Shown here piece after piece: positions 4,001 to 63,625 of a stretch of 64,000 nt of DNA; position 1 is the stretch's first letter; each line of letters begins with the position of its first letter. The notes under the pieces are model-generated. The model was not told the origin of the DNA and ran no database searches. It worked only from the letters and a program-made list of their open reading frames with translations. The position numbers and the translations under genes were made by a program. Source of the DNA: Botryllus schlosseri (Eukaryota); NCBI GenBank assembly GCA_051294905.1, contig CM119371.1, forward strand, positions 34,660,001 to 34,724,000, written 5' to 3'.

Positions 4001-6319
4001 TCTCAACCTGGGGGGCGCGGAAGGCTCTCAGGGGGGCGCGAGAAATTGACGAAGTCAGTATAGGGGGGGGGCGCGAGAAATTGACAAAGTCAGTATAAAT
4101 ATTACGTGTCTGAACATGTGTTTTACATCCATTCTGAGAAAACGATTAATGAAGATGAAATTTATTACATATTCAAGAAAGCTTGCAAAATACAAACTCT
4201 AGCAACCGCGCTCAACGGAGTATAGTCTGATTTCAACTTGATTTGAGCAAATTTTTGGAATTCTTTGGAGATATAGAGAGCAATTCCCACGTGTAAGTCA
4301 TTGCTTCATAGCTTTGACAGTAGCCTAAAGCTTGGCGCGCTGGGCAGATGTTGATAGTAGCTTGCGAACTGCACTGCCTAAGACAGACTTAGATGCAACA
4401 TAGGTTGCCCGGTTTCGCCCTCATTAGGCTATAAATCAACACAATTTAATTAATTTCCCAAACTGATCAAATTTAGCCTGGCAGGACAGAACGACGACTT
4501 GCTCTCTGTACTCACGACCAGCATCAGGATTAGTCTCAGGGTGACCTACCTTGAAATTAATTAACGGATGTCTTGTTCAATGTTTTTTATTATTTTCAAC
4601 CAAGTTTGGAGAAATTTGTCATGTAAAAGACTCAACAACTGGAATGCAGATTCAAAATTGGCCTAAGATATACCTTATGTATACTATTAGATCAGGGGTG
4701 GGCAGCCTGCGGCCGTAGAAGGGAATTTGAGCGGCGGTCGACGCCTAATTCAATTAGTATGTGTTGGCGGCCGTAGACATACAAATTGCAATTACGAATT
4801 CACTCCCGCATTTTCGGGAGATTTTAATTAATCTTGAAATTTTCTTCGCCCTCAACAAGACTTCAATTCAACAAGACTTCATTTTTCGATTTTAATGCAG
4901 TAGCGCCCTTCTTAGTCTGAGCCGGAATGGGAATTGGCAAGAAATAACAATTCGTTCGCGGCCCTGAAAAATTTTCGCGCTCCGCGCGACAATATGCACC
5001 TCCCGGCAACTATTCATAACATCGCCACTCACGATTTCGGTGCGTACAATAGGCCATTGTGAAAAGTAGAATAGTCCGGAGTTCACCGGGAATGGATATG
5101 AACAGTTTACCATAGGAATTTTGCGTCCAGATCGTTCATTGCGGCTATGCCCTGGAATGCGGCCTTACGCTACATAAGCAATCGAAATGCGGCCATGATT
5201 ATCAAAAACGTTGCCCACCTTTGTATTAGATGATGTGCTGTTTTTGACATGACGATAAATGCAAGGGGGGTCAGGGGCGCGCGATTTTTTTGACCATCTC
5301 TAAGGGGGGCGCGAGTCAAAAAAGGTTGAGAACCACTGTTCTAGTGCATGGGGTTCTTGAAATTTTCAGCGCCGACCGCTAAATTTCTGTGTTGTTTGCG
5401 CGGTCCCCATATTGCCTGAATCTGCGACGATTATGTATAGAAAATCAATGTCCTTCGCCCAGTTTTAATCACATCTAGTTGATTATTCGATGCCAACAAA
5501 ACTCATAGTAGACATATGCAATGGTCATTACCTGCACTCAGTCCTTATCATGTCCACGTTACCGGGAAAATACATAATAAAATATGGACATGTATTATAA
5601 TTCCGTTTAATGTATTTTCTTGCTGTAGTTTCAACATTACCCTCTCATGGACCCCTTCAATCTAGACCAGTGGCTCCCAACCTTTTTCGACTCATCACCC
5701 CTTACCAAATTCTCCCTTAACCTCGACTCTTTCCGTTGAGTTGACCTTCTTTTCACGACATATGCAGAATAAGCAGTATTCGCGTGCATTTCTCGCCGTA
5801 TTAATAAAATATATATCACTGGACGTTCTAAGACTTTCGCCCCCTATCGCTTCCTAGTCGCCCCCTTTGTTCTCAAACCGCCCACGTTGCAAACCACTAT
5901 ACTAGACCGTGAATTCCCAAGGCAATCATGGAACCATGTTTAAGAACTTCTGTTATGGTGGCTTCAAAAGATATCTTATCACCCTTATTTCTGAACATGG
6001 TTTTGGGACCGACAGCGAATTACTCACAGAGATTGAAGCCGGATCCCTGACTTTCTGGCTCGGAGCGAAAGGTGTGGCAGTAACGGGAGGTGCGGGAGCC
6101 GTCATGTCCACCGCTCGTTGGAGCGCGCCGTTTGAGACCGTTAACCCGTCATCATCACCTTCTTCGTTCGCTCTGACGCAAACCGACAACACCGCCAGAC
6201 CAGATCCCCCAGCATACAACCTTTGCGGGCGCACGAATCCCGATAGTACCACCAGCCTGCTATTCGAAGACTGCGCCGTTGCGTCGTACCGTTACGTATG
6301 CGAATACTGCGAAGCTTAA
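1024..6319 (+). CDS. C-type lectin domain protein with Thr-rich mucin-like stalk; 5'-partial; exons 1024-1124, 3800-3954, 6016-6319
   Basis: GT-AG exons with compatible phases give SLLFPPTTTAARASTTVATTPTIATTAAPETTE|DPLADWTMVGSCRYFFSTEMATWVDADAACQ...ARLAV...ERS|ELL...FWLGA...NLCG...FEDCAVASYRYVCEYCEA*. CTLD hallmarks are present (CRYFF, TW.DA...C, WLG, terminal C...YVCE). Start codon not found. Confidence 0.8.
1465..3704. mobile_element. hAT (Charlie-like) MITE, outer element of a nested pair in a lectin intron
   Basis: Ends CAATGGTTCTTAACC / GGTAAGAAGCACTG; 8-bp TSD GTTTACAT (1457-1464) / GTTGACAT (3705-3712), one mismatch. Confidence 0.65.
2215..3376. mobile_element. hAT (Charlie-like) non-autonomous element ~1.16 kb, copy 1
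   Basis: TIRs CAGTGGTTCCTAAC / GTTGAGAACCACGG; perfect TSD CACTATGC (2207-2214, 3377-3384); highly similar inverted copy at 14496-15627. Confidence 0.9.
3994..5338. mobile_element. hAT MITE, outer element of a nested pair
   Basis: TIRs CAGGGGTTCTCAACC / GGTTGAGAACCACTG; perfect TSD TTCTAGTG (3986-3993, 5339-5346). Confidence 0.9.
4693..5223. mobile_element. hAT MITE nested in 3994-5338
   Basis: TIRs CAGGGGTGGGCAGC / GTTGCCCACCTTTG; perfect TSD TATTAGAT (4685-4692, 5224-5231). Confidence 0.85.
5668..5899. mobile_element. Short hAT MITE sharing termini with the 1.16-kb family
   Basis: CAGTGGCTCCCAACCTTTTTCGACTCATC ... CCCACGTTGCAAACCACTA; degenerate TSD ATCTAGAC / TACTAGAC. Confidence 0.7.
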
Positions 6320-7011
6320 CCTCACCCCCATATCCGTGTGTTGTCGAAACAATTAACTGTCAGCAGTTCAAGTTATATATATAATCCCACCCATACAGAC
6401 CATCTTCGGAATACATCATTAAACAGTCGCCGAGCGTGTTCAGATTCAAGTCAAAATTCATACAAATTCAGCTGAGTAAATAGCCTACCAGTCCGCGTTC
6501 GAGATTATCGGACACAATCTGACTTATCGAATTCGCTTATATTTACAAATGGCCTTTCATTTCCGTCGCGTGTCCTTATTTGTTGTCTCCTGTTACTTAT
6601 TTTCATTCAGTGTGCAATGGTGCATGCCTGTTATTCACATGTTTTAGGCTCATGTATGTGTCTGATTGAATTACTACTACTATAGTCGTTTTGTCTAGGC
6701 CTACTTGCTATCTTTTCATAATTTAGTGATAGTGAGAATATTGATAAAACAGGAAGGAATCTGATGCTATTTTTGACTAACTCGATGACAAGCCTTTACG
6801 ACATGACATGGAGGTCGAAAGTCGAAAATGTGACTCGCGGGTGAAAAGTGGCCCACAAGAGTCCTGAAATCTTGATGGTCGAAAAATCTATCGATCAAAA
6901 ACGATGTTTGCGTTGAGGTTTACACCAATCCTACGAGAGAAACGTATTCAAAATTCATCCGGAAGGCCGCCCTTCCATTTTCCGTACATTGAAATTGTGC
7001 TAAAATTGGTT

Positions 7012-7812
7012 CAGTGTTGGGATGACTCGAGTCACATTTTTCGTATGACCTGACTTGACTCGAGTCACTTTGCTAAAATGACTTGACTTGACTTGACTCG
7101 GCGTATTCGAAATGTGGATTGACTCGTGACTCGGGAGCAAAATTCACGAGTCAATTTCAAGTCATCAATTAATCGGTGTCGATAAAAATATGTATCTTGC
7201 ATATGTTCGGATTGTTCGTGAAACGCTGGTGTAACCCATGAGAGTGACCAATTATTCCATGATCGTGCATTTTACTGAGCCTCCATTGTTCTATCACAAA
7301 TAAATTGACCGTAAACGAAGTGATCGAATCTTACATCCTACTTAAAGTCATTGAATAGTAAAGTGTCTATTTCCGTTCTCACCTTCACCAAATCTCTTGT
7401 TTTATTGAAATTGAATTCGAATATATGGTTCTGAACCATTGGCGCAGGCTTGAATTGTATCATATCAATTTCTAAATGGGTAATGTATTGCATCATATCA
7501 ATTCGTTTCTCTATTCTCTATTTTGGCTGGTAACTATAAACTGAGGCTATGCAATTACGTACGTAGTTTAACAGTTCTACGTATATGTGAGCGATACAGC
7601 GCCTTCTTGCGTGTATATTGACGTAACGTAATCATGAGCCATACTTTGAAAAGGCAACTTGACTTGAATTGTGACTTGACTCGTGACTGGACTTGACTCG
7701 ACTTGACTCGAGTAGCCTCCAAAATTCGACTGACTTGACTTGACTCGAGTCAAAATGTTCAATGACTCGAAATTACTCGTGACTCGAAGGTAGTGACTTG
7801 ATCCCAACACTG
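7012..7812. mobile_element. MITE with CAGTGTTGGGAT TIRs and subterminal GACTCGAGTC/TGACT repeats
   Basis: TIR CAGTGTTGGGAT...ATCCCAACACTG; homologous copies at ~28716-29543, ~42281-43225 and ~51137-51960. Confidence 0.85.
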
Positions 7813-8579: not shown

Positions 8580-9881
8580 CAGGGGTTCTCAACCCGCGGC
8601 CTGCAGACGTTTACTTTGCGGCCCGCGACATCTTTCATCGTGAACGCAATTATTACTGACACGGTATTGTTACATATTAATTTAGCTGCTTAGCTCTCTT
8701 ATCTCTCTTTCGTTTAATTAATCATTTTTGATGTGTTCTGGTTTCTTGATGTATGCCCGAGTTTAGATTGTTATTGTTTTGAATCCGTATTCGGTTGGAC
8801 TCTGGTTCACGACAATCCCGCTACGTAGTACATTTTTAAAGAGTGTTTTACTCACCGCAAATGGTTTGAACAGAAACAAGAGCACGGAATGGGCAATTAA
8901 ACGGCACAAACTGGGTTTGTAACTCTGCGTGGAACAATGAATTTGCTTTCTCAAATATAAATGGAAGACCGTTGTATCATACTTGTCGAAGAACCGTTTT
9001 CGTATGTCATAACGTCTGGAGTTATTCAGATCGCCTGATCTTATAAATAACGTTGCTAGCTAGGTGTCAAGCCCAGTAATACATATTTCAAGGCATTTAA
9101 AATTGCCGACGACGTTGCAGACAAATCGTTCAAAATTGCTGGGAATATCGCTAAACCCGAGAAATTTGCTAGAGAAAGTGTGATTTCAATAAAACTCTGC
9201 GAGTATTTGATGTTTCCGGAACTTAGCAGCAATTACAACAGCACCTGACATATGCCGAAGCTACAGTTGTCTGATTCAACCATGACCAAAAGAGTTACAG
9301 CAATGTCAGTCGATCTTTTATCGCATGTTCTGAAGCACGTAGTCACGTAGACTACTTCATCCTAGCATTGGATGAATTCACCGACTCCACAGACTTTGCA
9401 TAGCTAATTATCCTGGTGCATTTTGTTAGAGTGGACATATTTGCAAGGAAAATGCAGGCTGGGCCAACGTGGGAGGGGGACCAGCGAAAAACATCAACTT
9501 GACAAAGCTAACTAATTTAACTAATGGTGCAGGGCCCCCGCCATGGAATGAAAGGAGAAGGGTTGATCGGTTTGCTCAGAAATGACCCCGAACGCCAGAA
9601 TTCTTCTCATATAACTGAGAGCTCAATGTGATAATGGCTTCTGTAACGCAAAAGTTACCGTAATTTTATACTTGCTCTCTTCCGGTTTGAAGCGTAGAGT
9701 TCGGTTCTCTGTTGAAAGGGTCTAAAGGGGAATATACCGGCCTGTATACGACTGGTAAATAGGCTACAGTAGCCTAAATTTAATAGTAGCCCACAATTAC
9801 ATGGTAATAATGTTTTGCGACCCGCAGCGTCTTTTGCTGTTAAAATGCGGCCCGCGATACAAGGGAAGTTGAGAGCCCCTG
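8580..9881 (+). mobile_element. Decayed, internally deleted hAT transposon (Buster/Charlie/SPIN, GTF2IRD2-like) with transposase remnants
   Basis: TIRs CAGGGGTTCTCAAC / GTTGAGAGCCCCTG; TSD CGTTAGAT / CGTAAGAT; broken + strand peptides NSAWNNEFAFSNINGRPL..TC, QLSDSTMTKRVTAMSVDL, YFILALDEFTDSTDFA*LIILVHFV and TNGA.PAM match Buster-type motifs (LDESTD, TDGAPAM). Confidence 0.85.
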
Positions 9882-11087: not shown

Positions 11088-12680
11088 TTACTGGTCAAAG
11101 TTAGCAAAACAGTTATAGTTTTTGTTCAGGCACAGCTGTACATGACATTTGACACATTTTATAGCAGGTTGTTCTTCATAGGTATGTCTCTTGCATATCT
11201 GCCTGGTGTCCATAGAAGGGGTGTGACCCACTTGGTCACGTTGGGGTGGGCTTTGTTGGTCCTCTTTTCCATTTTTTTATCATACTCCTGCTGGATACAG
11301 AGAGATGTCCTCCGTCTTTTTCCCCTGTCACTAATTTTCCATACTTTACCAGGTATTCTGCATATAATTTGGAGCAAGCAGACATTTTTGCCTCTGTTTC
11401 GGAAGTTGCACAAAAACGCAGTCCCGTCTGTACAGCAATCAACTATTGGCGACAGCAAGATCAACCAAATGACGTACAATCACATGTATAGTATGTTTTT
11501 GAGCGGATACATGTTCTGTAATAATCCAAATAGGCATCCAGAAGATCAACCTTCCCCATAAATGAATTGTACTGTTCGGCAATAAATGGATAGTCGACCT
11601 GTGAGCGTTACTTCGTTTCCGGTCCCATCTTTCAATTTTACTAACAAGATTTGCTTTGACAAAGGTACTGGCCAGTATAACACTGCGATTGTCATACCAC
11701 TTTACTGCCCAAATACTAACGCCGTCCAGAGAAACCTCCTTTACTTCAAATCTCACTCTCCTTGTCCTGGAGTCTGTGCCATTACTGGATTGACAGCCAC
11801 ACAGTTTGTTTGATCGCACAGTTCCTACTGCAAAAAATCACATGTGAGATAAACTATGAGCAAGAAAGATTTGATCTGCTTCCATCGATCTCGGGACATG
11901 ATATCCGAAACTTTATCATATCTAGTATCATTGGCCCATTACATATAGGATCTTGGCATTTTCACGATAGACATATGCATGCGACATCCTAAGTCTTTTT
12001 CAATATCATCTCCAGTCATCTGTATTGCCTTCGTTGGATTAGTTTGAACGGCAAATAAATTGCTCTCATAAACAATCCAGTCCAGCAATTCCGCTCCAAC
12101 AAAATATTCGAAATATGTGTGCGGAGAAGACATAGAGTACAGTCACTGTCTGTATGGTTATGGCTCATACCGTCACGCATGACTTTAGTTCATGCTGACA
12201 AAGACTTTTGTGTCAACTCACTGGAGTTGAAGGTAGTGACAAGTGCAAGTTTCGGTTGAGTCTTTCGTTGCTTTATTTACAGCTTAATCATTTATTGGAG
12301 TATAAAACTCAGTAATAAATGCATAATTGTACACTGTCGAGCAATTCTGCCTTCCATATAGGAAAATAGTAGCTAGGGATCTTTCCACCTTGAATTGTTT
12401 TCCATATAGGTTTTCGTTTTGGTTCATGCGGTGTACATGCAGTTGACCCGGTGTTTTCCCTTTCTCTACTTTTGAAAACACGATTGAGGAATCTTCATCA
12501 GATTCGTCGGGAGAAGAGGATTCATCCGAACTCATTTACCACATAGCAGCAGAAGTTGCTGCAGTAGAACGTTCTTCATCGTCAGAATCACTGCCACCAT
12601 CTTTAGCCTACTGCCTTTCCAGTTTACCATCACTTGATGAGTGATTTTTTCCCCATAACAACATCTGGTATCCATTTTTG
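11088..12680 (-). pseudogene. piggyBac (PGBD-like, DDE_Tnp_1_7) transposase relic, frameshifted, with internal deletion
   Basis: Acidic N-terminus (SSDESSSPDESDED); SPHTYFEYFVGAELLDWIVYESNLFAVQ; IMSRDRWKQIKSFL; AVGTVRSNK; AVKWYDNRSVILAST; YNSFMGKVDLLD; C-terminal Cys-rich KCVKCHVQLCLNKNYNCF; several frameshifts; 5' boundary approximate. Confidence 0.85.
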
Positions 12681-13282
12681 CAACAGTAATTTCTGATTGA
12701 AATTATTGAGAATATTTGTTACCTTTTTAGCACTATTCTAGAAGTTAGTTTACATATTCGTTGTCATTATGTGATGTATCAAGGCACTTTCTTGACTCGT
12801 GAAGTTGGTGAATCTATTACCCTCTTTTCTCACGTAAATACCCATTCCATATGGAAATATTTCAGTAGTAGGAATGTTGTCAGAATTTACCAACAAAGGG
12901 CTAATGATGCAAATTCGCATCACTCCCCATTTTCAACTTTGCCGAGAAGAATTACACGTTATTGATCCAAAACACTTCTGGCTATGTGATTTATGGTATA
13001 AAGAATCCTATACATATTTTTCTGAACGAATATACTCACCAAATCATTCGACCGCGGAGCAAGAAAGGACGTGGGTCCACTGACTTCACTCAGACATGCC
13101 AATGCAATAACCAACGTCCGGGACACCCACCCTTCACTCCAAACACTCTATTTTAAAAGGCGCCAAAGGGAAGTTCGGAATGTGTACTTTCTGCGACGGC
13201 CGTCGTGGCCGTGTAAGTATGCGTGAAGTCAGTACAAAACGATGTAATTCGGTAAGTACCGAATTTGTTACGCTCGTCCACA

Positions 13283-15910
13283 AAGGGCTTACCATACGTT
13301 TGTCCTATTTTTTGACTTTTTTGAAAGTGTCCTCGGAGGACGCCCTTTTGTCCTCTTTTTTGAGATTTTGTCCTCTTTTTTGAAAATTTAGGCAGATTTA
13401 GAGCAAATTGCGAGTGATATGCCGCACAGCACCGTAACTGCCGCACCCCAAACCCCCCAATTGGGGGGGGGGCCGAGGTCAAAGGGGGCCCAAAATTATT
13501 TACTGAATTAGCATAAATTATAGAGTATTTTTTGAATATTTAGGCAACTTTCTCAAATTTTTTTCGCGCTTCGCGCGATTTTAAGCTACCAAATATCTTG
13601 ATTTTGGAGTACTCTTTCCCGAAGAAAAAATACGCAAGATTTATACAAATGGGCATATCGGCGTTGGCCATTACCTCTCCACGATCATCAAGACACATAA
13701 AGTTTTAGGCCACCTAACATGCGACTCCAAGAAGTGTGCCAGAACGATCGGCAGCGAGAAAACCTTCGCCGACAAGGACTGACCTTATGCTGACCGAAAA
13801 CTTCGTTATATATACAAAAAAGTGTATTTTACTATCTGAACGACAAATACAATCCCGAAAGGAAAGATTATATGCCAGTGAAGAAATACCAATTTGAAAT
13901 CGCGTGCGTCTTTTAGTTTGGTAGCCTACGCTCAAACTGGAGGTCACGAAATAACATCTTGTTACGGAGTAGTACCAACGGGCCCTACAGTTTCCAAGAC
14001 ACCTCACTCAGCTCTACCTGTAAATCTCATTACGTGAGCAGAGAGGACATGAAATTGATAACAATATATATGCAATTCCCGATATTATTCACCGATTTTA
14101 TCATAAATTATCGAAAATTGTCGCGCTTCGCCCTGGCTCACCAGACAGTAGGCCTACAATTAACTTCATGGCAAAAGCTAACAAGGTGATAGGGGGTAGG
14201 TTTATCACCCGATGTGAGCCCAACACCCAAGTTGGTTTTGGGAGCACCTGAGGAAGTGCTGTTTCGTTCCTGGCAACGGGTATCGCCCGAAGATATTTAA
14301 ATATTATTGAGGGGTCCTACCTGTTCAAACACATCTCCCTCAGCTCTATCAGTAAACCTGATTACGTGAGCAGAGAGGATAAAAATTGATAGCAATATAT
14401 ACGCAATTTCCGATCATATTGACGGACTCAATCATGAATTATAGAAAATCTTCGCGCTTCGCGCGGTTTAGGTGAGGAAAGTTGACACTCTAAACCAGTG
14501 GTTCCCAACCTTTTTCGACTCATCGCCCCCTTTTGAAGCTCCACACCGATCATCGCCCCAGAAATATTGGGAACCGAGAAACAGCACTTCGTGACGCCCC
14601 CCCCCCCGAAAACGTTGTTCCTTGGCCCCATATGGTGATAAACCAACCCCCAGTCACCCTCAGCCAGCGGGCTTTTTGTCGCTACATATCAGCTATACCC
14701 TATTTCCTGTACTGTTTGGTGAGTCACCGTATTCCACCTAAACGCGCGAAGCGCGACAAATTTATATAATTCATCTTTGAATCGGTCATTATGGTCGATG
14801 TGGTATGTTGGAAAAGGTAGAACCCCTAAATATTAATTAAACATCTTCGGGCGGAATCGTTGTTATATTGACTTCTTTACATGATGCTATTTCGTGACCT
14901 CCTATATATGCTATGTCAGACGATATGGAAATTTGTGAAAACGTACCAAACTAAAAGACCCCCAGGATTTCATATTGGTATTTCTTTACTGGCAAATAAT
15001 TTTTTTCCTTGCGGGATGGCATTTGTCCTGTAGGGTTAAGGTCGCCAGGACAGGAACATTCGACGCCAGCCATTGAGGCGCCTATGGACAATTAAACATA
15101 TATGTATATATATATCGAAGTTTTCGGTCAGCGCAAGGGCATTTCTTTTCGGCCAATTTCTTCTCGCTGCTGATCGTTCTGGCACACTTCTCGGAGTCGC
15201 ATGTTACATGGCCTATAACTTCATATGTCTTGGTGCGTCGTGGCGCAGTAATGGCCGACGCCGAGGTCTCTACTTTCCATAAATCATGCGTATTTTTGTT
15301 GGGTGACGGGGACCCCAACAACAAGATACATGAAAAGATTAGATTTTGGAAAAAGTTGCATGAATTTCTAAAAAATGACTCCATCATTCATGTTAATTCA
15401 CGAAATAATTTTCGGCTTCCTTCCTTCCTTCCTCCAATTGGGGGTTTAGGGTGCGGTAGTTACGGTCCCAACTCCAATATAGCCGTTTTAACGCGCCATC
15501 GCCCCCCTATCGCCCCCTTCGTTGTTTTCGCCCCCTATCGCCCCCTTCGTCCGTTTTCGCCCCCCTATCGCCCCCTTCGTTATTTTCGCCCCCTAGACCG
15601 CCAAATCGCCCACGTTGGGAACCACTGCTCTAAACGGAGGCCAATGTTAATGATAAGTATCGGCAAACAGCGAATAGCGAGAGGGGGGTCTGGGGGGCAT
15701 ATTAGCACAGAAGTGAAGCTCCGGCGGGTATTTCGGAGTGAAAAACGGTGATTTCAGCTCTGAGCAGAAGTGATGACCTTTTTTTTTTTAGTCAACCGAT
15801 CACAAAGTGGGAAAAATTAACCGCTTTTTGGGAATTTCACTCCGGTTTTGCATGTTGCAAATTTCTGAAAAAGTGTCCTCTTTTTTGATTTCCAAAATAT
15901 GGTAAGCCTA
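13283..15910. mobile_element. Non-autonomous element with AGGGCTTACCATA-type ends (hAT-Blackjack-like), interrupted by 14496-15627
   Basis: AAGGGCTTACCATA at 13283 and TATGGTAAGCCTA ending at 15910; interior homologous to 2397-3135; no clear TSD. Confidence 0.55.
14496..15627. mobile_element. hAT (Charlie-like) non-autonomous element, copy 2 (inverted relative to 2215-3376)
   Basis: TIRs CAGTGGTTCCCAAC / GTTGGGAACCACTG; perfect TSD CTCTAAAC (14488-14495, 15628-15635). Confidence 0.9.
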
Positions 15911-16307
15911 TCTTAAAAGCAACTTATCTTTTCTTGTAAGTGTGTCGCCAGAATTTTATAATTTTTTTTATTCAGGTAAAAACTGAATATGCTTTAGAAC
16001 CACTGGAATAAATACTAGTCAGCACTCAAGATTACCAGACCATGGGATATCGAGTTGAGTTCGCCCACCGACGAAAGTCTACCGGCCACCAGGTTATTTG
16101 ATGAGGCTTCCGAGGAATATGAAAATCAGATAGTTTAAAATAAATATTCACTGGAAACGTCTGTTTAAGTCACGATTTTTAAGTCACGACATTCGATCAC
16201 ATCGCAGGAGAGATAGAGAGAGATTGAAAGAGTCTTTATTTTCATCAAACCAAAATACATGAAAAACAGACGGCAACGATGGTGGTACAGAACAAATGCG
16301 TGCACAG

Positions 16308-17220
16308 TCAGGGCGTAACAGCACTTCGTCAGCGCCCCCCAAAAAAACGTTGGTCTTGGGCCCCCATAGGGTGATAAACCGAACTTCTGGGGAGCTTCCT
16401 CCCAGACCCACCTTCAGGCTATACGCTGTTTACCGCTACTCATCATCTACATTGGGTGTCAATTTAGCGAGTCAGCTTTTCTCGCCTAAACGCGCGATGC
16501 GCGAGCAAATTTTTCCAATTCAAGATTGAATCGGTCAATATCATCGGGAATTGCATATATATTGCTATATATTTTTATCCTCTCTCTGCTCTGATTCACC
16601 GGTAGAGCTGAGTGAGGTGTGTTTGGAAAGGAAGGACCCCTCAATAATAATTAGACATCTTTGGGTGTATAGGTATACCCGTTGGCCGGAACGAAACACC
16701 ACTTCGTCAGGCCCCCCACAAACCTTGAGTCTTGGGTTCCCATAGGATGATAAACCTACCCCCCCCCCCCATCACGTTGTTCGTTTTTGTCATGAAATTG
16801 TAGCTGCCCTGTTTAGCGAAGCGCGAAAATTTTCGATAATTCATGATAAAATCGGTCAATAAGATCGGGAATTGCATATTTATTGTTTTCAATTTCTTGT
16901 CCTCTCTGCTCACGTAATGAGATTTACCGGTAGAGCTGAGTGAGGTGTCTTGGAAACTGCAGGGCACGTAAATAATAAGTAAACATCTTCGGGTGGGTGG
17001 ACCCCTCTGCCCGGCCCCTTGGTATGACTTCGTTACATGATGGTGTTTCATGACCTCTTGTCTGGTATATCAAAAAATATAGAATCGCCCAAACATACTA
17101 AACTAAAAGATCACACGATTTCAAATTGGTATTTCGTCACTGACATATAATATTTCCCTGCGTGAGGGTATTTGTCTTGTGAAGTTCAGAATGCCAAGAT
17201 AGGAACATTCGGCGCTTTCA
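16308..17220. repeat. Truncated copy of the internal modules of the 13283/14496 elements
   Basis: Reverse-complement similarity to ~13850-14470 (e.g. GGTAGAGCTGAGTGAGGTGTCTTGGAAACTG); boundaries approximate. Confidence 0.65.
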
Positions 17221-17551
17221 TTGCAATATTTCGTCTCACGATTTGTTTTCCACAAATTTAGATGGGTAGTCAGTGCATTTGGAAGCAATCGAACAAGTAA
17301 TCTCATTCAAGAACAGCTCGTTGATATATACGAAACACCTCGTTTTTTAAACGCTCTTTCCACAAAAATGGTTGTCTCATTTCAAATCCCGACCGATATC
17401 ATGATAGGCAGAAAAGCGATCCGAGTGGCATTGTCATTTGTATCTACATGACTATGTGAACATATATAGCTTCTTTGTTTTGAATAACATTAAAAGCTGT
17501 GCTCAAGAGAGACTGCTTGAACTTGACGACGAAATACGGGTATGACATCAA

Positions 17552-18179
17552 TAAAGGGCGATTTTTTTAACATGTCAAAATTTGTCAAAATGTTGTCAGA
17601 ATTGTAGCGTTAGGTAAAAATTTGTCAAACTGTTTAGCATTCCACAAATTTTTTAAACCTCTGCATTTCGTTTGTATCGTAGATTTTACACTGTCGGTGT
17701 AATTATCATTTGATATTTATTTACAGCTGGTAGCCCAGGCCTACTTTATATGCCTACCGTTGTAAACGGCCAATTGTCTGCTCATTGTGAATCAAAAACG
17801 GTCAAATGAAGTGTTGTCAGCCAACAACTGCTGCTGTTGAACGTTCTTTCTCCATTCTTGGCAAATTTCTCAGTAAGGAGATACATTTTCTACTTAATAA
17901 TGTAGGAAAGTATCGTTCGTTGTACTACAACAAATTTTAATTATTTCTACAATAATACGTATTGTAACTACTGGATTTCTTCATATGGCCAGATTTAGTT
18001 AAAATACTAGTTTTTTCATGTGAAAATTTGTCAGTTTTCAAGCTCAAAACAGTTTTTCAGGCCAAATTACTTCGTTAGGACAGCCAGTTCCAACCAAAAA
18101 TGAAGATAAGTATAGTACAATTTTACCAGGTTTTTCAGGTCAAAATTTGCTATTTTGTTGGTAAAACAAAATCGCCCTA
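17552..18179 (+). mobile_element. TAGGGCGATTTT-ended hAT-like deletion derivative retaining the transposase C-terminus
   Basis: Ends TAAAGGGCGATTTT / AAAATCGCCCTA; TSD GACATCAA / GTCATCAA; encodes CQPTTAAVERSFSILGKFLSKE..F...NVGKY..LYYNKF* (ERxFS dimerisation-type motif); second copy at 44850-45720. Confidence 0.8.
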
Positions 18180-18474
18180 GTCATCAACAATCCAATGTAA
18201 CTTCGGTTCAGTCGCATACAAGTTCGTATAAACGAGCATAGCTTCTTTGTTTTGAATGACATTAAAAGCTGTGCTCGAGAGAGACGGCTTCAAATTGGCG
18301 ACGAAATACGGGTAGGTCGTTAACAATCCAATGTACCTTCGTTTCAGTCTCATATATGTTCGTGTAAATGAGCAATGAGCATAGCCATCGCATTACCACG
18401 TAAACTTTTTCTCAAAAAGCATATTTTTTGTAAGTGTGCCGCTACCGTTTTATAATTTTTCTAGTGTGCCACAC

Positions 18475-19772
18475 AGAGGTGGTCAGTAACGAAGTACTTC
18501 TACTTATTCGAAGTATTCAAGTAGTTTTCCTCTACTTCTGGTACTTACTCAAGTAGATCTGATTTTCGCTACTTCTACTTCGTAATATTTTGTGATCTAC
18601 TTACTTTTCGCTATTTTCAGTTTGTCAAGTAGAAGTAGTTTAATCTTCCAATTAGGAAGATATCCTGATGAATTTCGGGGCTGTTTTCACGGAGTATCAA
18701 CATTTAATTTTCATAAAAGTTGATTAAAGCCCAGAATTTTCGTCGCGCTTGGTGCGTAGTGGTTACGGAGTGACCTGTATGGTTTCACGAAAGTATCGGT
18801 GAACATAATTTAGGTGGCGGGTTGGCGTATTTCCGCTCACACCGCATTGTAGCCCATATGAAATATTTCATCACAGCTCATCATAACGTTTGAATCTGAT
18901 GTTTCGCAATCTAGCATTTACTTATGGTATCGTAAACTAGCAGTCCATGGCGTGTCCTAATCTGGAAAAGTGGACTCCGACTTTTTTAAGTTTCAGAGCT
19001 GTTTTAGCACACCAACCTTCGAAACTTTCTAGAGTTAAGACATGAAATACATGTTCCGCTTTTAGAAGTAGTAATTAGATTTCACTTTCAATTCCCGGTA
19101 TAAAATTAATTCTAATTATTATTAATATCAGTTCTTTTGTATGGATAACATACATGTGGAAGCATAAAAGCAAGTGAAGTAATGCCTTTAATTTCCGGAT
19201 AAAGCTAAACATGGCATTTTTACGATACACAATATTTTTTATTAACGTGTGCTAATCGCGCGAAGTGTTTACACCGTATCCTATACACCGTATCCGTATT
19301 GCTCGTCGACTAAACTACGGGCCTTATAACATGGGGGAGGGCACCATACCATAATATTTTCTAAAACGTGCTGTTGAAGTGAACAGAGGATTAGCATCGC
19401 ATTTCCATTTCAATACAATCATTTTCATTCCATGATGCGGACGAATGCTTATGCTGTCGAAAATTGGATGCATCAATATGAATCAAGCTCGGCACCTTTC
19501 GCATAGCTCAATTTGCACCTTTTGACAGTCCATGTATACGAATTACGATAGTTTTCACATATACTTACTTACTTGAGTAGATTTAAAGTCAGTCAATTCT
19601 ACTTCTACTTCAAGTAGTTTTAGGTTGCTTATGGAAGAAGTACTTCTACTCGTACTAGAGTAGATTTTTTCGTCGCTAGGGGGGGGGGGGGGGGGGGGGC
19701 GGAAATTTGTGTCGAGATTGATGAGGGGCGATGAGTCTATAAAGAATGGTAACCACGGACTTTTGACCACTG
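18475..19772. mobile_element. MITE with AAGTA/TACTT subterminal repeats (hAT-Ac-like), carrying a 21-nt poly-G and a MITE fragment near its right end
   Basis: CAGAGGTGGTCAGTAACGAAGTACTTCTACTT ... TTTTGACCACTG; dense AAGTAG/CTACTT motifs at both ends. Confidence 0.55.
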
Positions 19773-20289
19773 TTTATATATAGTTCGATTCTACTGACTA
19801 AGACCAACTTTACGTAAATGTCTCGTCGGATTATTCATTTAGCTAATAACGCTAAAAAGTCTCACAGGGGTGGTCTGAAATTTAGCGCTACCACGAGTAT
19901 AACACAACGATGATGTTGCCGAATACCTCACCCTAGTCACCCATAAAATTTCATACTTTCACTCTCCTAATTTTGAGACTACGAGTTGTGGATTATAGAA
20001 CTCATGGTTAACTTTCGCAAAATAGTGATACGTTCGATATGATCATCACGTGTTACGTCTAGTTGATACTTAGTATATTTGGATTATGGTGAGCTTTAGC
20101 AATCTTAGCATGATGATATGTGCGACTGTGGTAAATAGTTTTGGAGTGTATTCTTTTTCTGAATTCCGGAAATCCATTTTTCTTGAATAATGCACTTGAA
20201 CTAGGATGATATTTTGTTCAAGTATTTTTCTTAAAGCATTGGGACGACCCGAGTCACCTTCTACATAGTGATACTTCATTGATTGTTGT

Positions 20290-20860
20290 ATCAATCAATC
20301 AATCAATCAATCAGGTTTATTAATATTTTCATCGTTTCAAAACATCACAAGACTGCGATACAATGAAAAGATAGGAAGGTGTGGAAACAACTTGGAGTAG
20401 CCTTTAAGATCAGACACCCACCTTAGCCCAGGCGAAGTAAATAAGAGGCATGCACATGCACACTGAATGAAAAGTAATGCAGAGAATATAAGACGCAAGC
20501 GACAAAATGAGGTGGCATGTGGCGGAGGGCGAGGTCGATGTTAGGTCGTGGTCCGGTGATCCTGAAGACTGGCTAGTATTGATTTAGAAGAAATTGCTTG
20601 TATTTCGACTTGAATGCGGACATGTTCGACGACGGTCGGATAGTCGGCGAGATGCTGTTCCACAATTGGGGTCCGGCATACTTCATAGAGTAATGCGTTT
20701 TCTTGTATTCAGTACTGATCATAAAGTAGTTGTTCTTCGTTGACGCGTGTGTGCTGTAGCCTACTTGTGCGCTTTTGTCTTCGAGGGGAAGTAGTCGTTG
20801 AAATTTGAGGGACATGGGACATTGACCGCAATGGAACTGATACATAAACTTGGCAATACC
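20290..20860 (-). mobile_element. 5'-truncated LINE (CR1/L2-group): ORF2 C-terminus, 3' UTR and (TGAT)n tail
   Basis: YSMKYAGPQLWNSISPTIRPSSNMSAFKSKYKQFLLNQY* is typical of the post-RT C-terminus; AATAAA followed by a (TGAT)n tail; 3' UTR repeated at 50400-50667; extra fragment at ~21550-21615. Confidence 0.85.
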
Positions 20861-20933
20861 TATAGTTTCCTCATATCTTCTAACTTTAGAACACCATATC
20901 TTTTGAGAAGCGATTTATCAGTTGCACATCCAT

Positions 20934-21442
20934 ATTAGGGTTGGGGGAATATTAGGGTTAGGATATCCCGACCCAAGATTAGGGTTGGATGAGGGGGGAT
21001 ATTAGCATTGGAGGTGGGGGCATATTAGGGTTGTGGTTAGGGTATCCCAATAGGGTTGGGGGTGAGGGACACGATATCCAACCCTAATATCCCCCTCCCT
21101 AATCTTGGGATACCCTAACTCACCTCTAAACCTAATATCCCTCGTCCCCAACCCTAATAATCCCCTCCTCCAACCCTAATCTTGAGATAATCTAACCATA
21201 ATCTTGGGATATCCTAACCCTATTATTCCCCCTCCCGTCTTCAACCCCAATATTCTCCCTCCTCCCGTCCCCAACCCCAATATTCCCCCTCCTCCAACCC
21301 TAATCTTGGGATACCCGAATCCCGACTTTGACCCTAACCCTCTCCCAACCCCAATATCCCCCCTCCTCTAACCCTAATCTTGGGATACCCGAATCCCAAC
21401 TTTGACCCTAACCCTCTCCCAACCCAAATATCCGTCTCTCCA
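20934..21442. repeat. Telomere-like (TTAGGG/CCCTAA-derived) degenerate minisatellite with internal strand switch
   Basis: ATTAGGGTT units G-rich on the top strand to ~21065, then AACCCTAAT units; includes a ~74-bp tandem duplication at 21286-21433. Confidence 0.8.
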
Positions 21443-22573
21443 AAGGCAAAAAAAAAACATTTTTATTTTGACGTGTTCATGATAAACATATATTGGTGAT
21501 CATGGGGAACATTTTTAGATGTCTCCCTACTATCGAAGAAGCGCCGAAATTGCTTGTATTTTGACTTGAATGCGGACATGCTCGACGACTGTCAGATAGC
21601 CGGCGGGATGCTTGACCGCATATGAAATGAACATCGGCCAGAGTCAGAGTGGAATTGTTGGGACCGTCCCACGTAACTTTCCATGTAATATTTATAATTA
21701 CTTGATTATTCCAGGACAGATACCCGTCTGTCATGTGCTATTGTCGAAAAAAACCATTCGTTTAGTCTGGAACTGGAACAAGGATTACAGATTGCGTTGT
21801 CGTAAACTGGTAGTAAAGTAAACTGATAGCAATGTATCTGTGTTCCATAGCCGGCTCACAGCACTTGCCTTAACCATGCAACGACTACTGCAATTTTCCA
21901 TGTATAATGCGCAAAATTTTACCGATTTTTTGCCCCAAAATAGGGGGGTGCGTATTATACATATGTAGGCCTACAACAATAAGCCTTGAAAAAAACTAGC
22001 TCAATAAAAACTTGAAATCGCACTTTTCTTCATGTTTGTTTCCAATCGCGCATCACTTTCAGCCATCGTACCCAGTAATTCATATTTTCAGTTTAACGCG
22101 CTGCCAATTAGCGAGAAGCGCGTTGTAAATTAACGAGAGCCGTCTGGCCGTAGGTTGTTATAGCCGGCAGAGAAAAGCCCTCGTTTCCCCTCCAATTTTC
22201 GACTTGTACATTGTGACTCTATAACTTGCCACTACATCTCATCAGAGTCAGATGAAAAGCTTTATGAAGTCTACGCATAAATCGATAATATGACTATGTT
22301 TTTGAATATATGAACATAACAAATATAACTGAACTTTCACTATAACTCTACAATTTCCAAATAGCTTTGTTGCTCACCTCAAATTACCTTTTGTGGCCCA
22401 CCCATTGAGAACCCCTGCCTTATAGACACTGCCATTGCGGAGACCAAAATCGTTAATCGTGAATTACCATTTACCACTTTCTCTCGTCTTTGTGTTTTAG
22501 AATACCAATTTAGCAATGCCTAACTGACAGTTCTCATCTCACTGAATTATTCTGATCGCGGTCTCTTGAAGCG

Positions 22574-23686
22574 ATGGGTAACTCATCCAGTCATGAACCA
22601 AAGGGTGTAGTCCCCATGAAATCGCGTTTTCGCGGCGCTGTGATGGGCTCGCTTTATGGCGATTGCTTGGGAGAACGCTACGAGAACATGTGGACTGAAA
22701 TCGATGTCAAAAGAGTGATCATGTACTACAACGACACTGCCAAGAAGGTTCGAGAAAAAGAGGCAAAGGAAAAAGGATTTGTTCCTCACACTGATGACTC
22801 CTGCATGATGTTCGACTTGGGAGAATCATTGATACGTAACAAGAGTTACGAGCCTCGAGACGTTATGAAGTCATTTGCGGAAACACACGCGGCCTCAAAA
22901 CCTCAACGTAATTACGGGAAAAATGCCGCTATTTTGCTGCGTGACGTCCGCGAACGCAACTACGAAGGGAACATTTACTACCCTGCAAAACGACAGTTTA
23001 GCGGGACTGGGTCTTACGGTAATGGCTCTGCTATGCGAGTAGCTCCTGTCCCGTTATTCTATCATGGTGATCCAGTGAAAATATCAAACCTGGCCAGTGA
23101 GCAATCACGATTAACCCACACTAATCCCAAAGGCGTTAATGGTGCTATACTCCAAGCACTCGCGATAGAGAAAGCATTGAATACTGATAATATCGACGAT
23201 CCCGCTCAGTTCGTAGAAGATTTGTACATGCAGCTAAACGAATTGACGTCTGATAAGGCAGGCTTGGAGATATATCGTGAAAAATGTGACGCGGTAGTGA
23301 AGCTGCTCAGCTCCAAGTCTTTAGTGAAAGCGCCACAGTATAACAAAGAAATTGGCTCGGACGTTACGGCCCACAGATCTATTCCGGCCGCCATATTCTG
23401 TTTCCTGTACACTCTGAATCCGAAACGAATTCCTGCACTGTCGAAATACAATGGATTTCTGCGAGCCACGATCCTTGCCGCTGCTTACAGTCACGATTCG
23501 GACACGGTTGGGTGCATGGCGGGCGCTATAGCTGGCGCTTATTACGGTGTCGAGGCCTTGTCGGAGGAGTGGAAATTTGCGTGCGAAAAATCGGACGAAG
23601 CCATAAAACTTGCCGATGGTCTTTACGAATTGAACACGACTGGTACTGGTGATCGAAATGAGGACCCTGTTGCGGAAAATGAGTAG
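22574..23686 (+). CDS. ADPRS: ADP-ribosylhydrolase ARH3-like (ADP-ribosylglycohydrolase family), single coding exon, 370 aa
   Basis: Uninterrupted ORF with ARH3 motifs SRFRG..MGSLYGDCLG..YE, HTDDS, GSYGNGSAMRVA, LTH...GVNGAILQALA, DSDTVGCMAGAIAGAYYG; may be a paralog rather than the 1:1 ortholog. Confidence 0.9.
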   Translation: MGNSSSHEPKGVVPMKSRFRGAVMGSLYGDCLGERYENMWTEIDVKRVIMYYNDTAKKVREKEAKEKGFVPHTDDSCMMFDLGESLIRNKSYEPRDVMKSFAETHAASKPQRNYGKNAAILLRDVRERNYEGNIYYPAKRQFSGTGSYGNGSAMRVAPVPLFYHGDPVKISNLASEQSRLTHTNPKGVNGAILQALAIEKALNTDNIDDPAQFVEDLYMQLNELTSDKAGLEIYREKCDAVVKLLSSKSLVKAPQYNKEIGSDVTAHRSIPAAIFCFLYTLNPKRIPALSKYNGFLRATILAAAYSHDSDTVGCMAGAIAGAYYGVEALSEEWKFACEKSDEAIKLADGLYELNTTGTGDRNEDPVAENE

Positions 23687-23826
23687 TTAACGTGGTCATT
23701 CTCAAACTCTTTCGGTTTGCGGTACACTAGAATAATTATTAAATGCCCGCGACACAGTTACATTCGAAGGGATGTGAAAATGTTTTAACATGGTAATGCG
23801 ATGAATATGCTTGTTTATGCGAACAC

Positions 23827-24423
23827 TAGGGTTGTTCCAAAATAGCTTTTTTCCCGGATTCCAGGGACTCACTTATTTATTGTTAGGTTGCCCAAGAAAA
23901 CGTTGCACGCCAATTTGCCTGGATTTCAACTGGTAGATGTGAACGCACAGGAGTTTGAAAAGTTTGAATTTGTTGTGGACAAGATTATGAAATATTTTTC
24001 AAATTTGACTGTCAACCACATGAAATTGTGGGGCTGTCTGCAAAAATGATGCGAGACAAATTTGATGCAATTCCAACCCGTAGAAGCGATGTCATTGAAG
24101 TTTTTCATTAATCACTCTTGGATTATCAACCGTCCAGGCTATTCTTGCTAATCCAAAATTTTCAACTGCAATAACTTCTTCTATCGGTTGGAAGTGACAT
24201 AAAATGTTCAAGCATTGTTCTTCCAGACAACTTGACAATTTCGTGGATTTGACTGTGAAATTGAAGTTTTTTCACTACATTCAAGTTTTTCAATCTCCTG
24301 TGCGTTCACATCTACCAGTTAGGAACGAGCCAAATTTGGTGTGCAGCGTTTTTTTAGGCAACCTGACAGTTTATTCAGTGAATCCCCATAATTCGTGAAA
24401 ATAGTTATTTTTGAACAACCCTA
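23827..24423. mobile_element. MITE with long TAGGGTTGTTC TIRs (hATm-like)
   Basis: TAGGGTTGTTCCAAAATAGC ... GTTATTTTTGAACAACCCTA with ~100-bp inverted ends; relatives at ~93-300, 30613-30925 and 31346-32940. Confidence 0.8.
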
Positions 24424-25320
24424 ATGAACATGAATGACTGAACAAAGTTGCATTTCTTCCATTCTAAGCTTTTGTTTACAGTTTTTAGGGCGGAAATCCT
24501 AAAGTTAGCTTATCCGGGAAATTGCTAATCGTCTGATTAAAACTGGTAATCCTCGCTCATAGACGTTTAGTAAGAGTATTATCCCGAGTCATTTGGTGAC
24601 ACTTTTAATCCAGCGAAGTAGGTTGCTGTGATTTGCAATTATTAATCAGATGATTTCTCTTGGATAAGCTAGCATTATGATCTCTGCCGTTCATTTAGTT
24701 CAGAAAAGTCATGTGCACAAGAGCCATGCAGAAGCGAATGGCAATATTATCTTGATTGATTTTGAACCCATCTTTGAATGGGATGTGTTTATCAGCTATT
24801 ACAGCAGTTTGAAGCAGGGCACTTTGAAATCATGTGTGCTTGTCTGCATGCCTTATTTTTATATTTAAGTCAGTTTCAAAGTTGTACAAATTACCCATTT
24901 AGTTAGTTAAACATCAACTTACTAACGGTGTTTTGAGTTGTTCTAGTTCTAGTTGCAAATTTCAAAATGGGAGTAGTTCTAGCTATAGTGGCGGATTTTG
25001 AAAACTGATTAGGCCTAGTTCCAGCTCTAGTTGCTAGTTTAAAAAAATGATTAGTCCTAGTTCTAGTTGCATATTTTGTAAATTGAGTACGTCCAGTTCT
25101 AGTTCTAGTTGCGAGTTTTAAAAAATGAGTAGCCTAGTTGTAGTTTTAGTTCTTGTCGCAGATTTTGAAAAGTGAGTGGTTCTAGTTCTAGTTGCGCATT
25201 TCGGTCAGCTCACTACTGGATCTTTGGAGGCACACTAGCATGCCATGACACACTGTTTACAAATCACTTAGACAAAGGTAGAACTTTTGTTGTACGAATA
25301 ATAATGACATGAACTCGATT

Positions 25321-25607
25321 GCCGCTGTAGCTCAGTTGTTGCACATCTGGTCTCGCAAGCCAGAGGTGTCGGGTTTGGTCCCTGACGGATGCCTCCCTAG
25401 AATCCAGCTAATGGTGAGGCTGGATTCCGGCAGGGAGTATACCTGGTGTCAAACTTCAGTAGTAATGGTACAAACTCCGTATTTCTTATGTTCCACTTTC
25501 AATGGTACGACTGATGCTCTTGCAGTAGAAGTAGCAAATCAGTGGCTTTAATGGTACTTGTAATTAGCCGCACCAAGCACTTTCAGTACAGAAGCCAATC
25601 AATCAAT
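25321..25607 (+). mobile_element. tRNA-derived SINE
   Basis: GCCGCTGTAGCTCAGTTG (A box) ... GGGTTTGGTCCC (degenerate B box), non-tRNA body, (CAAT)n tail. Confidence 0.6.
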
Positions 25608-26972
25608 ACTCTCCGCAAGTATTTTTAAATACATAATGTACAATGCGATCTAATGAACAGGTCAGAGGATGTTCAAATGACCAATTGTTGCTTGTCAATC
25701 TAACACCCTCGTCGATCTACTAGTGATAATCGTTGAGTTATATTTTTCATCTGAGCAAGTCACACACAAGTACAATGCGTTAAGACACAATGCGATGGTA
25801 TCACTAGTATTATTGCCTGCCATAGCAGTGTTTAATCTTGGATGTTTCAGCTATCTTATAATGTTTCCTTACTCTTTCATTGTCTTGTATGCCGCATACC
25901 GCATGTATCCTTCATTGGACCTTTATTTTGCAATGAGAACCGTGTATAATCATCCATATACATTATACGGTGTTCCCAGATGCTTGATTTTGACAGATAC
26001 CAAACTTCGGTGACACCTTAACATATCTGAGATTTCTTGTGAATGTGTATTGCTGTTTACCCAGCTCTACTTCCTCTTGAGAGATATTTTCTGGTCGGTC
26101 TAAGCTCCTGTATTAGTGAAAATGAAGCGTCAGTGTAGTATGAAAGCGTAAAACGATGGAGAAATTATTTATTCACTGCAAGGTCATGTCATATGCAATA
26201 CATAATATGCCTTTTGATTCTTCGGAAGCAAAGATTCCAACTGAAATGGTATACGACAGCAAAGTGACCACTCTTGGTATGCTCAATTCGAGACATTCTG
26301 TAGTCTGCCAGACTGTAGGCCCTACCTGGTTTTATAACGAGTCAAAATTACTCAATCGAGTGATGTTTCTCGTCACCAAACATTATTTGACTATGACTTT
26401 CTGTGTCAGGTGAAAATTTTTATATGTAGGACCAAACCTGAATCGTCTGAACCCTTCCAAGTCCCGTGGAAGATGTACGCCAACGGCTATAGCATAGATG
26501 TGCAACCTGCTGCCGTAGAAAAAATTGTGTGGCTTCTGCTGAAGTGCTAATTTCATGTGAAGTGCAGCCTCTATGTGGGTTTCTAATTGTGCTAATGGTC
26601 TGTTACATTTGGGTTGAGTTCTAATGGGCTGATAAAAGACACAGAACAGTGAAGTAGCCTACACAGTACACATGTGCTGACTTTGCAATAAATATTGGTA
26701 ACAAAACAAGCAATAAACTTTTACCTCTAGGTATTACTCTCTACTATGTGCAGTTTGATATTGTACTGTATATATACTTTATCGCTAAACGATTATATCC
26801 TTCCTTATCATGTAACTATACACTCTTATTGCAAACTTATTTACTCTGTATATTGTTTCTTGATTTTATGGGAAGGGGGGGAGGAGTGAAATGTTTTACC
26901 ATCATCAAGGAGAGAGTGTCTCAATAAGTTAGAAACCGCTGCTCTACCCGAACATAGAGTAATGAACTGGAA

Positions 26973-50895: not shown

Positions 50896-63625
<12,730 letters not shown>

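Follow-up and report, generated by a model that had tools for sequence, protein, structure and literature searches.

We examined a 64,000-nt stretch of the Botryllus schlosseri genome (GCA_051294905.1, CM119371.1:34,660,001-34,724,000; contig 1, or C1, of a 495.5-Mb assembly), hereafter the window, together with 100 kb of flanking sequence on either side, giving 264 kb. The window is rich in short repeats and C2H2 zinc-finger arrays, its DNA has about 40% G+C with a CpG observed/expected ratio of 1.05 (i.e., CpG is not depleted), and scattered through it is a short word in which two TA dinucleotides enclose GCC, GGC, or GGCC. We write TAGSCTA for the three-base forms TAGCCTA and TAGGCTA (TA-GCC-TA and TA-GGC-TA) and TAGGCCTA for the four-base form TA-GGCC-TA; with an outer G and C these become the palindromes GTAGSCTAC and GTAGGCCTAC. 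The original prediction, made from the letters of the window, was that these words are excision footprints of a TA-targeting mobile element acting as a genome-wide mutator.

All of the motif positions listed in that prediction do carry the word, with an offset of at most one base, and the claimed excess over background was borne out by Markov and shuffle counts in the window and the 264 kb as well as by the genome count. TAGCCTA occurs 23 times on both strands of the window against 3.84 expected, a number reached in 0 of 100 shuffles, and the six copies of TAGGCCTA (0.46 expected) were likewise matched by no shuffle. The 264 kb hold 111 sites (46 TAGCCTA, 41 TAGGCTA, and 24 TAGGCCTA), such that GCC and GGC are used about equally; against an order-2 Markov expectation this amounts to 87 versus 17.8 for TAGSCTA and 24 versus approximately 1.75 for TAGGCCTA. 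Across the genome there are 131,669 TAGSCTA sites, or about one per 3.8 kb, compared with 51,110 for the reversed word, and 10,508 sites of GTAGGCCTAC compared with 119 for its control. The reversed-word control is uneven and inflates some ratios, and we therefore relied on the Markov figures, which scale by extrapolation to some 33,000 TAGSCTA expected genome-wide; GTAGGCCV, for example, reaches 4.5x by the reversed-word control, yet TAGGCCV only 1.0-1.2x by the Markov expectation. Because TAGGCC shows no enrichment ahead of A, C, or G, the signal requires both TAs.

The motif is also specific. When all TA-x-TA words with x of two to six bases were scored in the 264 kb under the order-2 model, the only dispersed outliers were those with GCC/GGC and GGCC, which upholds the expectation that the inserted bases are fixed rather than random. 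Other high-scoring words (TAGAAGTA, TACTCAAGTA, and TACCGGTA) were considered as further types and rejected, as they reside in repeat families. Forms that simple trimming of overhangs ending in GG or GGG would produce stand at background in the 264 kb (observed/expected: TAGCTA 88/90, TAGGTA 88/96, TAGGGTA 21/20.5, and TAGGGCTA 5/3.8), and the six-base form TAGGCGCCTA was seen twice against 0.2 expected. Flanks are largely unrelated between sites, and counts per 5-kb bin in the 264 kb are near Poisson. A local hot spot lies at C1:85,200-88,950 (L002, L003), where seven copies of TAGGCCTA, all in different contexts, fall within about 3.7 kb in which approximately 0.3 would be expected.

Insertions at single TA sites

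Self-alignment of the 264 kb provided 45 motif sites with a paralog of at least 68% identity, and after two sites with the variant TAGCCCTA were set aside 43 remained. Eight of these show a clean 5- or 6-bp gap located exactly at one TA; at about 19 the paralog carries the word as well, at 4 substitutions account for the whole difference, and 12 were too messy to classify; the clean insertions therefore make up 8 of the 24 sites that are not simply shared. Four lie in the window (14149, 20757, 25130, and 43353) and four outside it (69753, 100356, 109313, and 109614). In these cases the paralogs have a single TA where the site has TA-GCC-TA or TA-GGCC-TA, and the ancestral site is AGTAC in five of the eight. 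At 43353, 69753, and 109313 the long allele is absent from several paralogs and is thus derived, as judged by paralog comparison; the proposal that the longer allele is the derived one is supported at these sites.

The clearest example is TAGCCTA at 43353-43359, a 5-bp insertion at CTCGAG-TA-CAAGT within a repeat of the GACTCGAGTC type described below. The insertion, predicted at 43352, is clean against the paralogs at both 63275 and 53941 and is also missing from at least four more paralog groups. At 14149-14156, TAGGCCTA is a 6-bp insertion at CAG-TA-CA; the comparison originally offered for it (14148 against 3155) aligns poorly past CAGTACA, but against a better paralog outside the window (80.7% identity over 502 bp), which has CAGTA------CAG, the insertion is clean. 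Paralogs within the window are less clear here, and that at 16796 has GGGCAGCTAC at the matching place. TAGCCTA at 20757-20763 is a clean 5-bp insertion at TG-TA-CT relative to a paralog five bases shorter, and a loose contig end from run X6 at 20762 reads ...CGCGTGTGCTG, matching the expectation without the insertion. TAGCCTA at 25130-25136 lies in a tandem-repeat unit and is absent from the paralog at 28286, which is 5 bp shorter, while the sister tandem unit carries TAGGCCTA at the equivalent place (25010-25017), the GGCC and GCC forms being one base apart; on the comparison of the two units, the insertion at 25010/25130 is older than the tandem duplication.

Other cases are less regular. 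Two insertions predicted at 46600 and 43024 are genuine 5-bp indels of degenerate form, GGCTG and GCCTG: where GTA-GGCTG-CTA is found at 46602-46606, the tandem twin at 46398 has TTA-CTA (297-bp alignment, 78% identity), and the paralog at 7192 is 5 bp shorter than GTA-GCCTG-CAG at 43027-43031 (65.8% identity). The insertion proposed at 13921 (TAGCCTA, 13922-13928) had to be abandoned as a clean case, as this copy, aligned with 2921 and 14942 (reverse complement), lacks about 26 bases after TTTGGTA and diverges there, with only CG then in common. Inherited examples include the pair TAGGCTA-CAG-TAGCCTA at 9760-9776, which also occurs in an 87%-identical paralog, TAGCCTA at 27525-27531 in the repeat family TTTATCAC-TAGCCTA-CAGT, where it is common to paralogs, and TAGGCTA at 50535-50541 in the family CGCC-TAGGCTA-AGGTGG, where it is common to three paralogs of 84-93% identity. 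The paralog of TAGCCTA at 6481-6487 is shorter by seven bases, the alignment is ambiguous for TAGGCCTA at 6696-6703 and messy for TAGGCTA at 29145-29151, and TAGGCCTA at 21966-21973 has shorter paralogs in a messy alignment. Sites recorded as word matches are TAGGCTA at 1408-1414, 4425-4431, 27166-27172, 27227-27233, 41040-41046, and 49115-49121; TAGCCTA at 4321-4327, 29818-29824, 33189-33195, and 52718-52724; TAGGCCTA at 51121-51128; and a TAGCCTA and TAGGCCTA separated by 17 bases at 61598-61629.

For positions 12001-32000, contigs from four public runs were compared at 90% likeness; repeats dominated the outcome, and the following refers to the indels listed. At TAGCCTA in 12604-12610, contigs from each of the four runs are shorter by exactly five letters, at a depth far above single copy, and these shorter contigs are most likely paralogs of a repeat. 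TAGCCTA at 26655-26661 lies in low-copy DNA and is spanned by a second-sample contig (X6, record 30, 26274-26814) with one other letter and no gaps; the motif is thus not an assembly artefact and is common to both samples.

Among small indels the TA-GSC-TA class is specific and a minority. A blind tally of clean insertions in repeats, made with a looser scan, included 68 of 5 bp, four of which were TA-GSC-TA, and a strict-flank scan found one motif-type case among 17 five-base insertions. Eight of the 5-bp insertions duplicate a TA; four of these are TAGCCTA, and the remaining four are four different words.

One target word is itself repeated. Empty CTCGAG-TA-CAAGT occurs in 2,484 copies genome-wide, and in the same context we found 86 alleles with one to six bases between two TAs, of which 26 are GCC, GGC, or GGCC. 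The three-base alleles comprise GCC (12), GGC (5), and six other words seen once each, such that 17 of 23 are canonical. The four-base alleles comprise GGCC (9), tandem duplications of the flank (13), and others (12), with GGCC thus accounting for 9 of 21 when the tandem duplications are left aside. About 1% of copies carry a canonical form (26 against 2,484 empty), and the presence of all three at this single target implies at least three separate events.

The flanks of the motif suggest a preference beyond TA itself. When position -1 and, in complement, the base following the second TA are counted together (n = 222), the half-site is G in 105 cases, A in 68, T in 31, and C in 18, compared with background frequencies of 22% for G and 33% for A. 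Sites with G..C flanks number 28 of 111 (25%), 6.2x the 4.0% background, and 69 of 111 have purine..pyrimidine flanks. Judged by these flanks, the target is TA, preferably within (A)G-TA-C(T), and the symmetry of the half-site preference fits a dimeric enzyme acting on a palindromic target. The original statement that the site is usually GTAC therefore holds as a preference, but not as a majority. Among the first 100 TCGAGTAGGC sites listed, about 73 continue directly into TA or CTA, and their right flanks are varied.

Candidate source elements

An element bounded by TA|GGC...GCC|TA and encoding a DDE transposase, as the original prediction envisaged, was not found in our searches, and several look-alikes were excluded. 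One is an abundant miniature inverted-repeat transposable element (MITE) with ends TAGGCTTACCA...TGGTAAGCCTA, which has 5,653 perfect ends in the genome, with pairs 330-560 bp apart, and at first sight resembles a TA|GGC element. In about 16 of 20 copies read, however, 8-bp duplications adjoin TAGGC, which indicates that this MITE is hAT-like and that the TA is part of the element; the TAGSCTA and TAGGCCTA sites, unlike it, add only 5-6 bp and have no 8-bp repeat. In the window this hAT-like MITE (ends TAGGCTTACCATA...) is found at 13286 and 15901-15908, with further copies in L025-L044, and a sister family has ends TAGGGTTACCATA.

A second candidate belongs to the ISL2EU group of the PHIS superfamily, which is described in Han et al. 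2015 (PMC4482050) and Han et al. 2014 (PMC4122938). An apparently intact 4.7-kb copy lies at L045:3015-7717 (G000 C7), with another in L046; there are about 170 copies genome-wide with ends AGGCCTTTTGCAGG..., most of which are 2.75-kb deletion derivatives. Open reading frames (ORFs) of the L045 element match DDE_Tnp_4 (1.6e-42), HTH_Tnp_4 (5e-11), THAP (4.4e-16), and YqaJ (2.3e-09), the YqaJ exonuclease ORF being on the strand opposite to the other three. The family has 346 end words in the genome, and two of its copies are 99.6% identical; it is probably still active. All 12 copies inspected read AAT|AGGCC...GGCCT|ATT, and three empty paralogs of one copy read CAATTTC, which implies duplication of AT within AATT. 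In domain content (THAP, HTH, and DDE_Tnp_4 plus a YqaJ gene), length (approximately 4.7 kb), and A|AT|T target, the family resembles ISL2EU as characterized in the sections of Han et al. 2015 that deal with the group, where the rule given is an AT duplication in A|AT|T (PMC4482050). It was rejected as the source, as our sites sit at TA in RTAY; moreover, although the ends AGG...CCT spell the 6-base insertion, an ISL2EU scar is expected to exceed the empty site by 8 bp rather than by 5-6 bp.

A tblastn search with the ISL2EU transposase gave no match in the 264 kb. No inverted ends were evident at the similarity limits of a second DDE_Tnp_4 family (L067/L068), and no convincing terminal inverted repeat was found within 5.1 kb of a third copy (L111). 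PHIS transposase genes of the DDE_Tnp_4 type are extremely numerous, with 891 candidate loci; scoring was applied to 150 of these, and the matches reported number 151. Many have open frames of 300-500 aa, and they include groups of equal scores.

The third class comprises pogo-like elements, whose DDE_1 domain has 72 matches in the genome. Copies at L069:1802-4697 (G000 C8) and L091/L092 have long open frames of 569-634 aa, an apparent TA duplication, and unusual G-rich ends, GGGTAGAGTGGGG... and GGGGAGACCGGGG...; a further pogo-like copy to the right of the window, at 115,476-118,363 (C1:34,775,476-34,778,363), sits between 620-bp inverted repeats. Two pogo-like families, TA|GGGTAGAG... and TA|GGGGAGACC..., have the right target and the wrong end bases, GGG(G), and the same holds for a 965-bp MITE with TA|GGGGAGATG... 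ends, which has the TA target and unsuitable end bases. GGG ends would predict TAGGGTA, TAGGGCTA, and TAGGGCCCTA, all of which are at background. A guessed pogo-like end, TAGGC..AGA...GGGG, led to TAGGCAGAGTAGGGG, which proved to be an internal word.

Longer words of the form RTAGGC-N(0-9)-GCCTAY number 1,568 against 1,000 for the control; they are mostly two motif copies side by side and gave no sign of additional element end bases. At C1:594,592-594,635, two copies of GCTGGTG enclose a perfect palindrome of 20 bp, CGGGGCCTAC|GTAGGCCCCG, which resembles what would remain of an element with 7-8-bp duplications after almost all of its interior had been deleted. Comparable back-to-back GTAGGCC pairs occur at C1:485,041/485,075, C1:828,651/828,681, and C1:1,580,751/1,580,785.

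Proposed excision scars and rival explanations

Tc1/mariner elements leave excision footprints, of which TA-C(A/T)G-TA of Sleeping Beauty is one and those of Tc1/Tc3, Mos1, and Minos are others. The words described here resemble such footprints in that a duplicated TA surrounds three or four bases, for a 5-bp net insertion at TA in the three-base form, which, as in Sleeping Beauty, is a palindrome with a free central base. They differ in having G(G/C)C in place of C(A/T)G, in the lack of any element found with matching ends or any Tc1/mariner domain detected, and in an unusual scale of about one site per 3.8 kb. Footprints of the hAT/Transib type contain hairpin-derived palindromic (P) nucleotides that copy the flank, and hAT scars keep two 8-bp duplications. 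Short palindromic additions at the site are a feature in common with these, whereas GCC, GGC, and GGCC are not templated by the GTA/TAC flanks and the 8-bp duplications are absent. In the passages of Roffler and Wicker (2015; PMC4423477) that concern footprints, these are traced to 3' overhangs, and excision is presented as a genome-wide source of small indels in rice, inferred from filled, empty, and scarred sites. Hundreds of events from known families are described there, with diverse and often complex outcomes (PMC4423477); in B. schlosseri, by contrast, a single stereotyped scar occurs in approximately 10^5 copies, a number that distorts the k-mer spectrum.

The explanation we favor, with a probability of roughly 0.6, is that TA-GCC-TA, TA-GGC-TA, and TA-GGCC-TA are scars of the Sleeping Beauty type, left at excision by an element that duplicates TA and is bounded by GGC...GCC; they would be mostly old and partly multiplied with repeats. 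The source would be a cut-and-paste DNA transposon that duplicates TA at insertion and has ends 5'-GGC...GCC-3'. At excision its transposase would cut the non-transferred strands three bases within the element, such that TA and a GGC 3' overhang remain on each flank. Were these overhangs to overlap completely, G:C pairs would form at both ends around a central G:G mismatch, which repair to G or C would convert to TA-G(G/C)C-TA, while a shifted 2-base GC overlap would give TA-GGCC-TA. The element itself may be rare, extinct, or of an unrecognised type; we infer its existence, and the chemistry of the overhangs by analogy with Sleeping Beauty. We regard a footprint as the best fit because TA is duplicated, only GCC, GGC, and GGCC are enriched, and the insertions are derived relative to several paralogs; recurrence at one target is likewise observed directly. 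That trimming forms are at background while GCC/GGC and GGCC alone are in excess is what GGC 3' overhangs would be expected to give, and the near-equal numbers of GCC and GGC (46 against 41) agree with it as well.

A number of results weigh against excision scars. Neither inverted-repeat scans nor nested-insertion analysis of the 264 kb found a TA|GGC...GCC|TA element, and every recurrent GTAGGC(C)... family examined genome-wide has a conserved upstream flank, such that the word is internal there. Pfam DDE_3 (Tc1) gave no genome matches, nor did Transposase_1 (mariner), although the control for the latter matched no control genome; the two pogo-like families whose ends were read, as noted, combine the TA target with wrong end bases. 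Together, the roughly 19 of 43 paralog-covered sites inherited within repeats and the four explained by substitutions mean that independent events are fewer than motif copies. Gaps shorter than 3 kb between GTAGGCCTAC sites number about 6 against 8 expected, and with close neighbours not in excess and bins near Poisson, the local hopping that a transposon might show is not indicated. Finally, the scars are equally compatible with duplication of TA plus GSC and with AGSCT placed between T and A. The footprint part of the original prediction hence keeps its support from the TA duplication, the fixed word, and the derived state, while the element it called for is absent from the searches.

The age and amplification of the scars bear on how active the process is. 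One-mismatch neighbours of TAGGCCTA number 156 against 109.5 expected, compared with 48 against 3.5 for the intact word (both strands counted); under neutral decay this suggests about 11% divergence for TAGGCCTA and about 5% for TAGCCTA, the latter estimate being noisier. Scars are missing from twenty young hAT-like MITE copies (8,889 bp), where 3.7 would be expected (P approximately 0.02). Some scars are carried by repeats: a MITE subfamily AATGACTGTAG-TAGGCCTA-CAAGT accounts for 14 of the first 100 GCCTACAAGT rows listed, another family has GTAGGCCTAC in all three copies read, and of the first 93 GTAGGCCTAC sites no fewer than 13 come from these two, so that independent events must be well below the motif count. 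The notion of a very-high-frequency, genome-wide mutator is thus not borne out, given the small share of clean 5-bp insertions that are of this type (4/68), the many inherited copies, the divergence of about 5-12%, and the unscarred young MITEs; the scars appear to be a mostly old record partly amplified by repeats, and not an ongoing dominant mutator.

Several other explanations may be considered. We give a doubtful one-in-five standing to the idea that the scars derive from a non-classical, undescribed branch of TA-duplicating cut-and-paste elements with a G|TA|C target, perhaps a GGCC-ended relative of PHIS/ISL2EU or a domesticated copy that works independently of any mobile element; were this true, tens of thousands of identical micro-insertions would record an enzyme class with a new target rule. 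It seems unlikely that no element is involved at all and that a host or domesticated nuclease or transposase, for example one derived from PHIS/ISL2EU, cuts (A)GTAC(T)-like sites, with repair leaving AGSCT or AGGCCT between T and A. Such a process would accommodate the failure to find a resident element in the 264-kb scans; the 6-base insertion, read as AGGCCT, is what the three bases at each end of ISL2EU AGGCC...GGCCT give when joined, PHIS transposase genes are very numerous and often intact (891 candidate loci), and ISL2EU elements contain a gene for a YqaJ-type exonuclease. We know of no precedent for a process of this kind, however, and the scars appear mostly old. ISL2EU also inserts at AATT (12 of 12 copies and three empty sites), whereas the scars are at TA, with AATAGGCCTATT-type flanks atypical, and the terminal match may be due to chance given that GG(G/C)CC is a common PIF/Harbinger end in table 1 of the rice study (PMC4423477).

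That the motif is no more than a component of a small number of dispersed repeat families that spread it as they multiplied, with alignment noise producing the apparent insertions, is quite improbable: the shared sites among the 43, together with the AATGACTGTAG-TAGGCCTA-CAAGT subfamily and the GTAGGCCTAC-bearing family that multiply scars, are what it would predict, but flanks are unrelated at most sites, clean 5/6-bp gaps fall exactly at one TA and are absent from several paralogs, three forms occur at the single target CTCGAG-TA-CAAGT, and the 1.0-1.2x ratio of TAGGCC before A, C, or G shows that both TAs are needed. We find it very hard to credit the elements recovered here as the source, even though all three have G-rich ends beside TA or T-A, the TAGGCTTACCA... 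MITE is abundant, and the pogo-like families appear to duplicate TA; the 8-bp duplications of the MITE, the AT duplication in AATT of ISL2EU, and the background levels of words predicted by GGG ends all speak against it. Least probable of all is that GTAGSCTAC and GTAGGCCTAC are a functional palindromic binding site held or spread by selection. A 9-10-bp palindrome spread evenly, near Poisson in 5-kb bins, might be so interpreted, yet it arises by a stereotyped 5/6-bp insertion and not by point changes, its approximately 130,000 copies are far beyond regulatory need, and one-mismatch neighbours are in excess as in neutral decay.

If the words are indeed excision scars, they would constitute a countable fossil record of cut-and-paste activity: some 10^5 sites would far exceed whatever copies survive, and a single transposon family would have left a visible mark on the k-mer spectrum of an animal. 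The scar count would provide a rare direct estimate of how often an element jumped rather than of how many copies remain, and the scars predict the ends and target of the missing element. They also warn against taking a 10-bp palindrome for a binding site on the strength of its over-representation. Neither the motif nor a comparable excess of scars was found described for any tunicate in the full-text literature, a search whose coverage stops short of subscription journals; of the published studies, that of footprints in rice (PMC4423477) came closest.

Other features of the window

The most over-represented words of the window are GACTCGAGTC and its relatives GACTTGACTC and AGTCAAGTC (e.g., 7023-7093, 42341-42434, and 53899-53956). 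GACTCGAGTC has about 75 sites in the 264 kb against approximately 0.5 expected (150 against 0.9 on both strands), and words of this type belong to a very abundant short-repeat family of GAGTC/GACTC units. Degenerate telomere-like arrays at 20978-21433 consist of units derived from TTAGGG/CCCTAA together with G- and C-rich blocks in inverted orientation. A C2H2 zinc-finger gene cluster with 84-bp periodic arrays occupies 29900-40000 and includes open frames of 480 and 448 aa. An intronless ORF of 370 aa at 22574-23686 resembles the ADP-ribosylhydrolase ARH3; among named proteins it is closest to several paralogs of the ascidian Styela clava (45-56% identity), a pattern that suggests expansion within a lineage.

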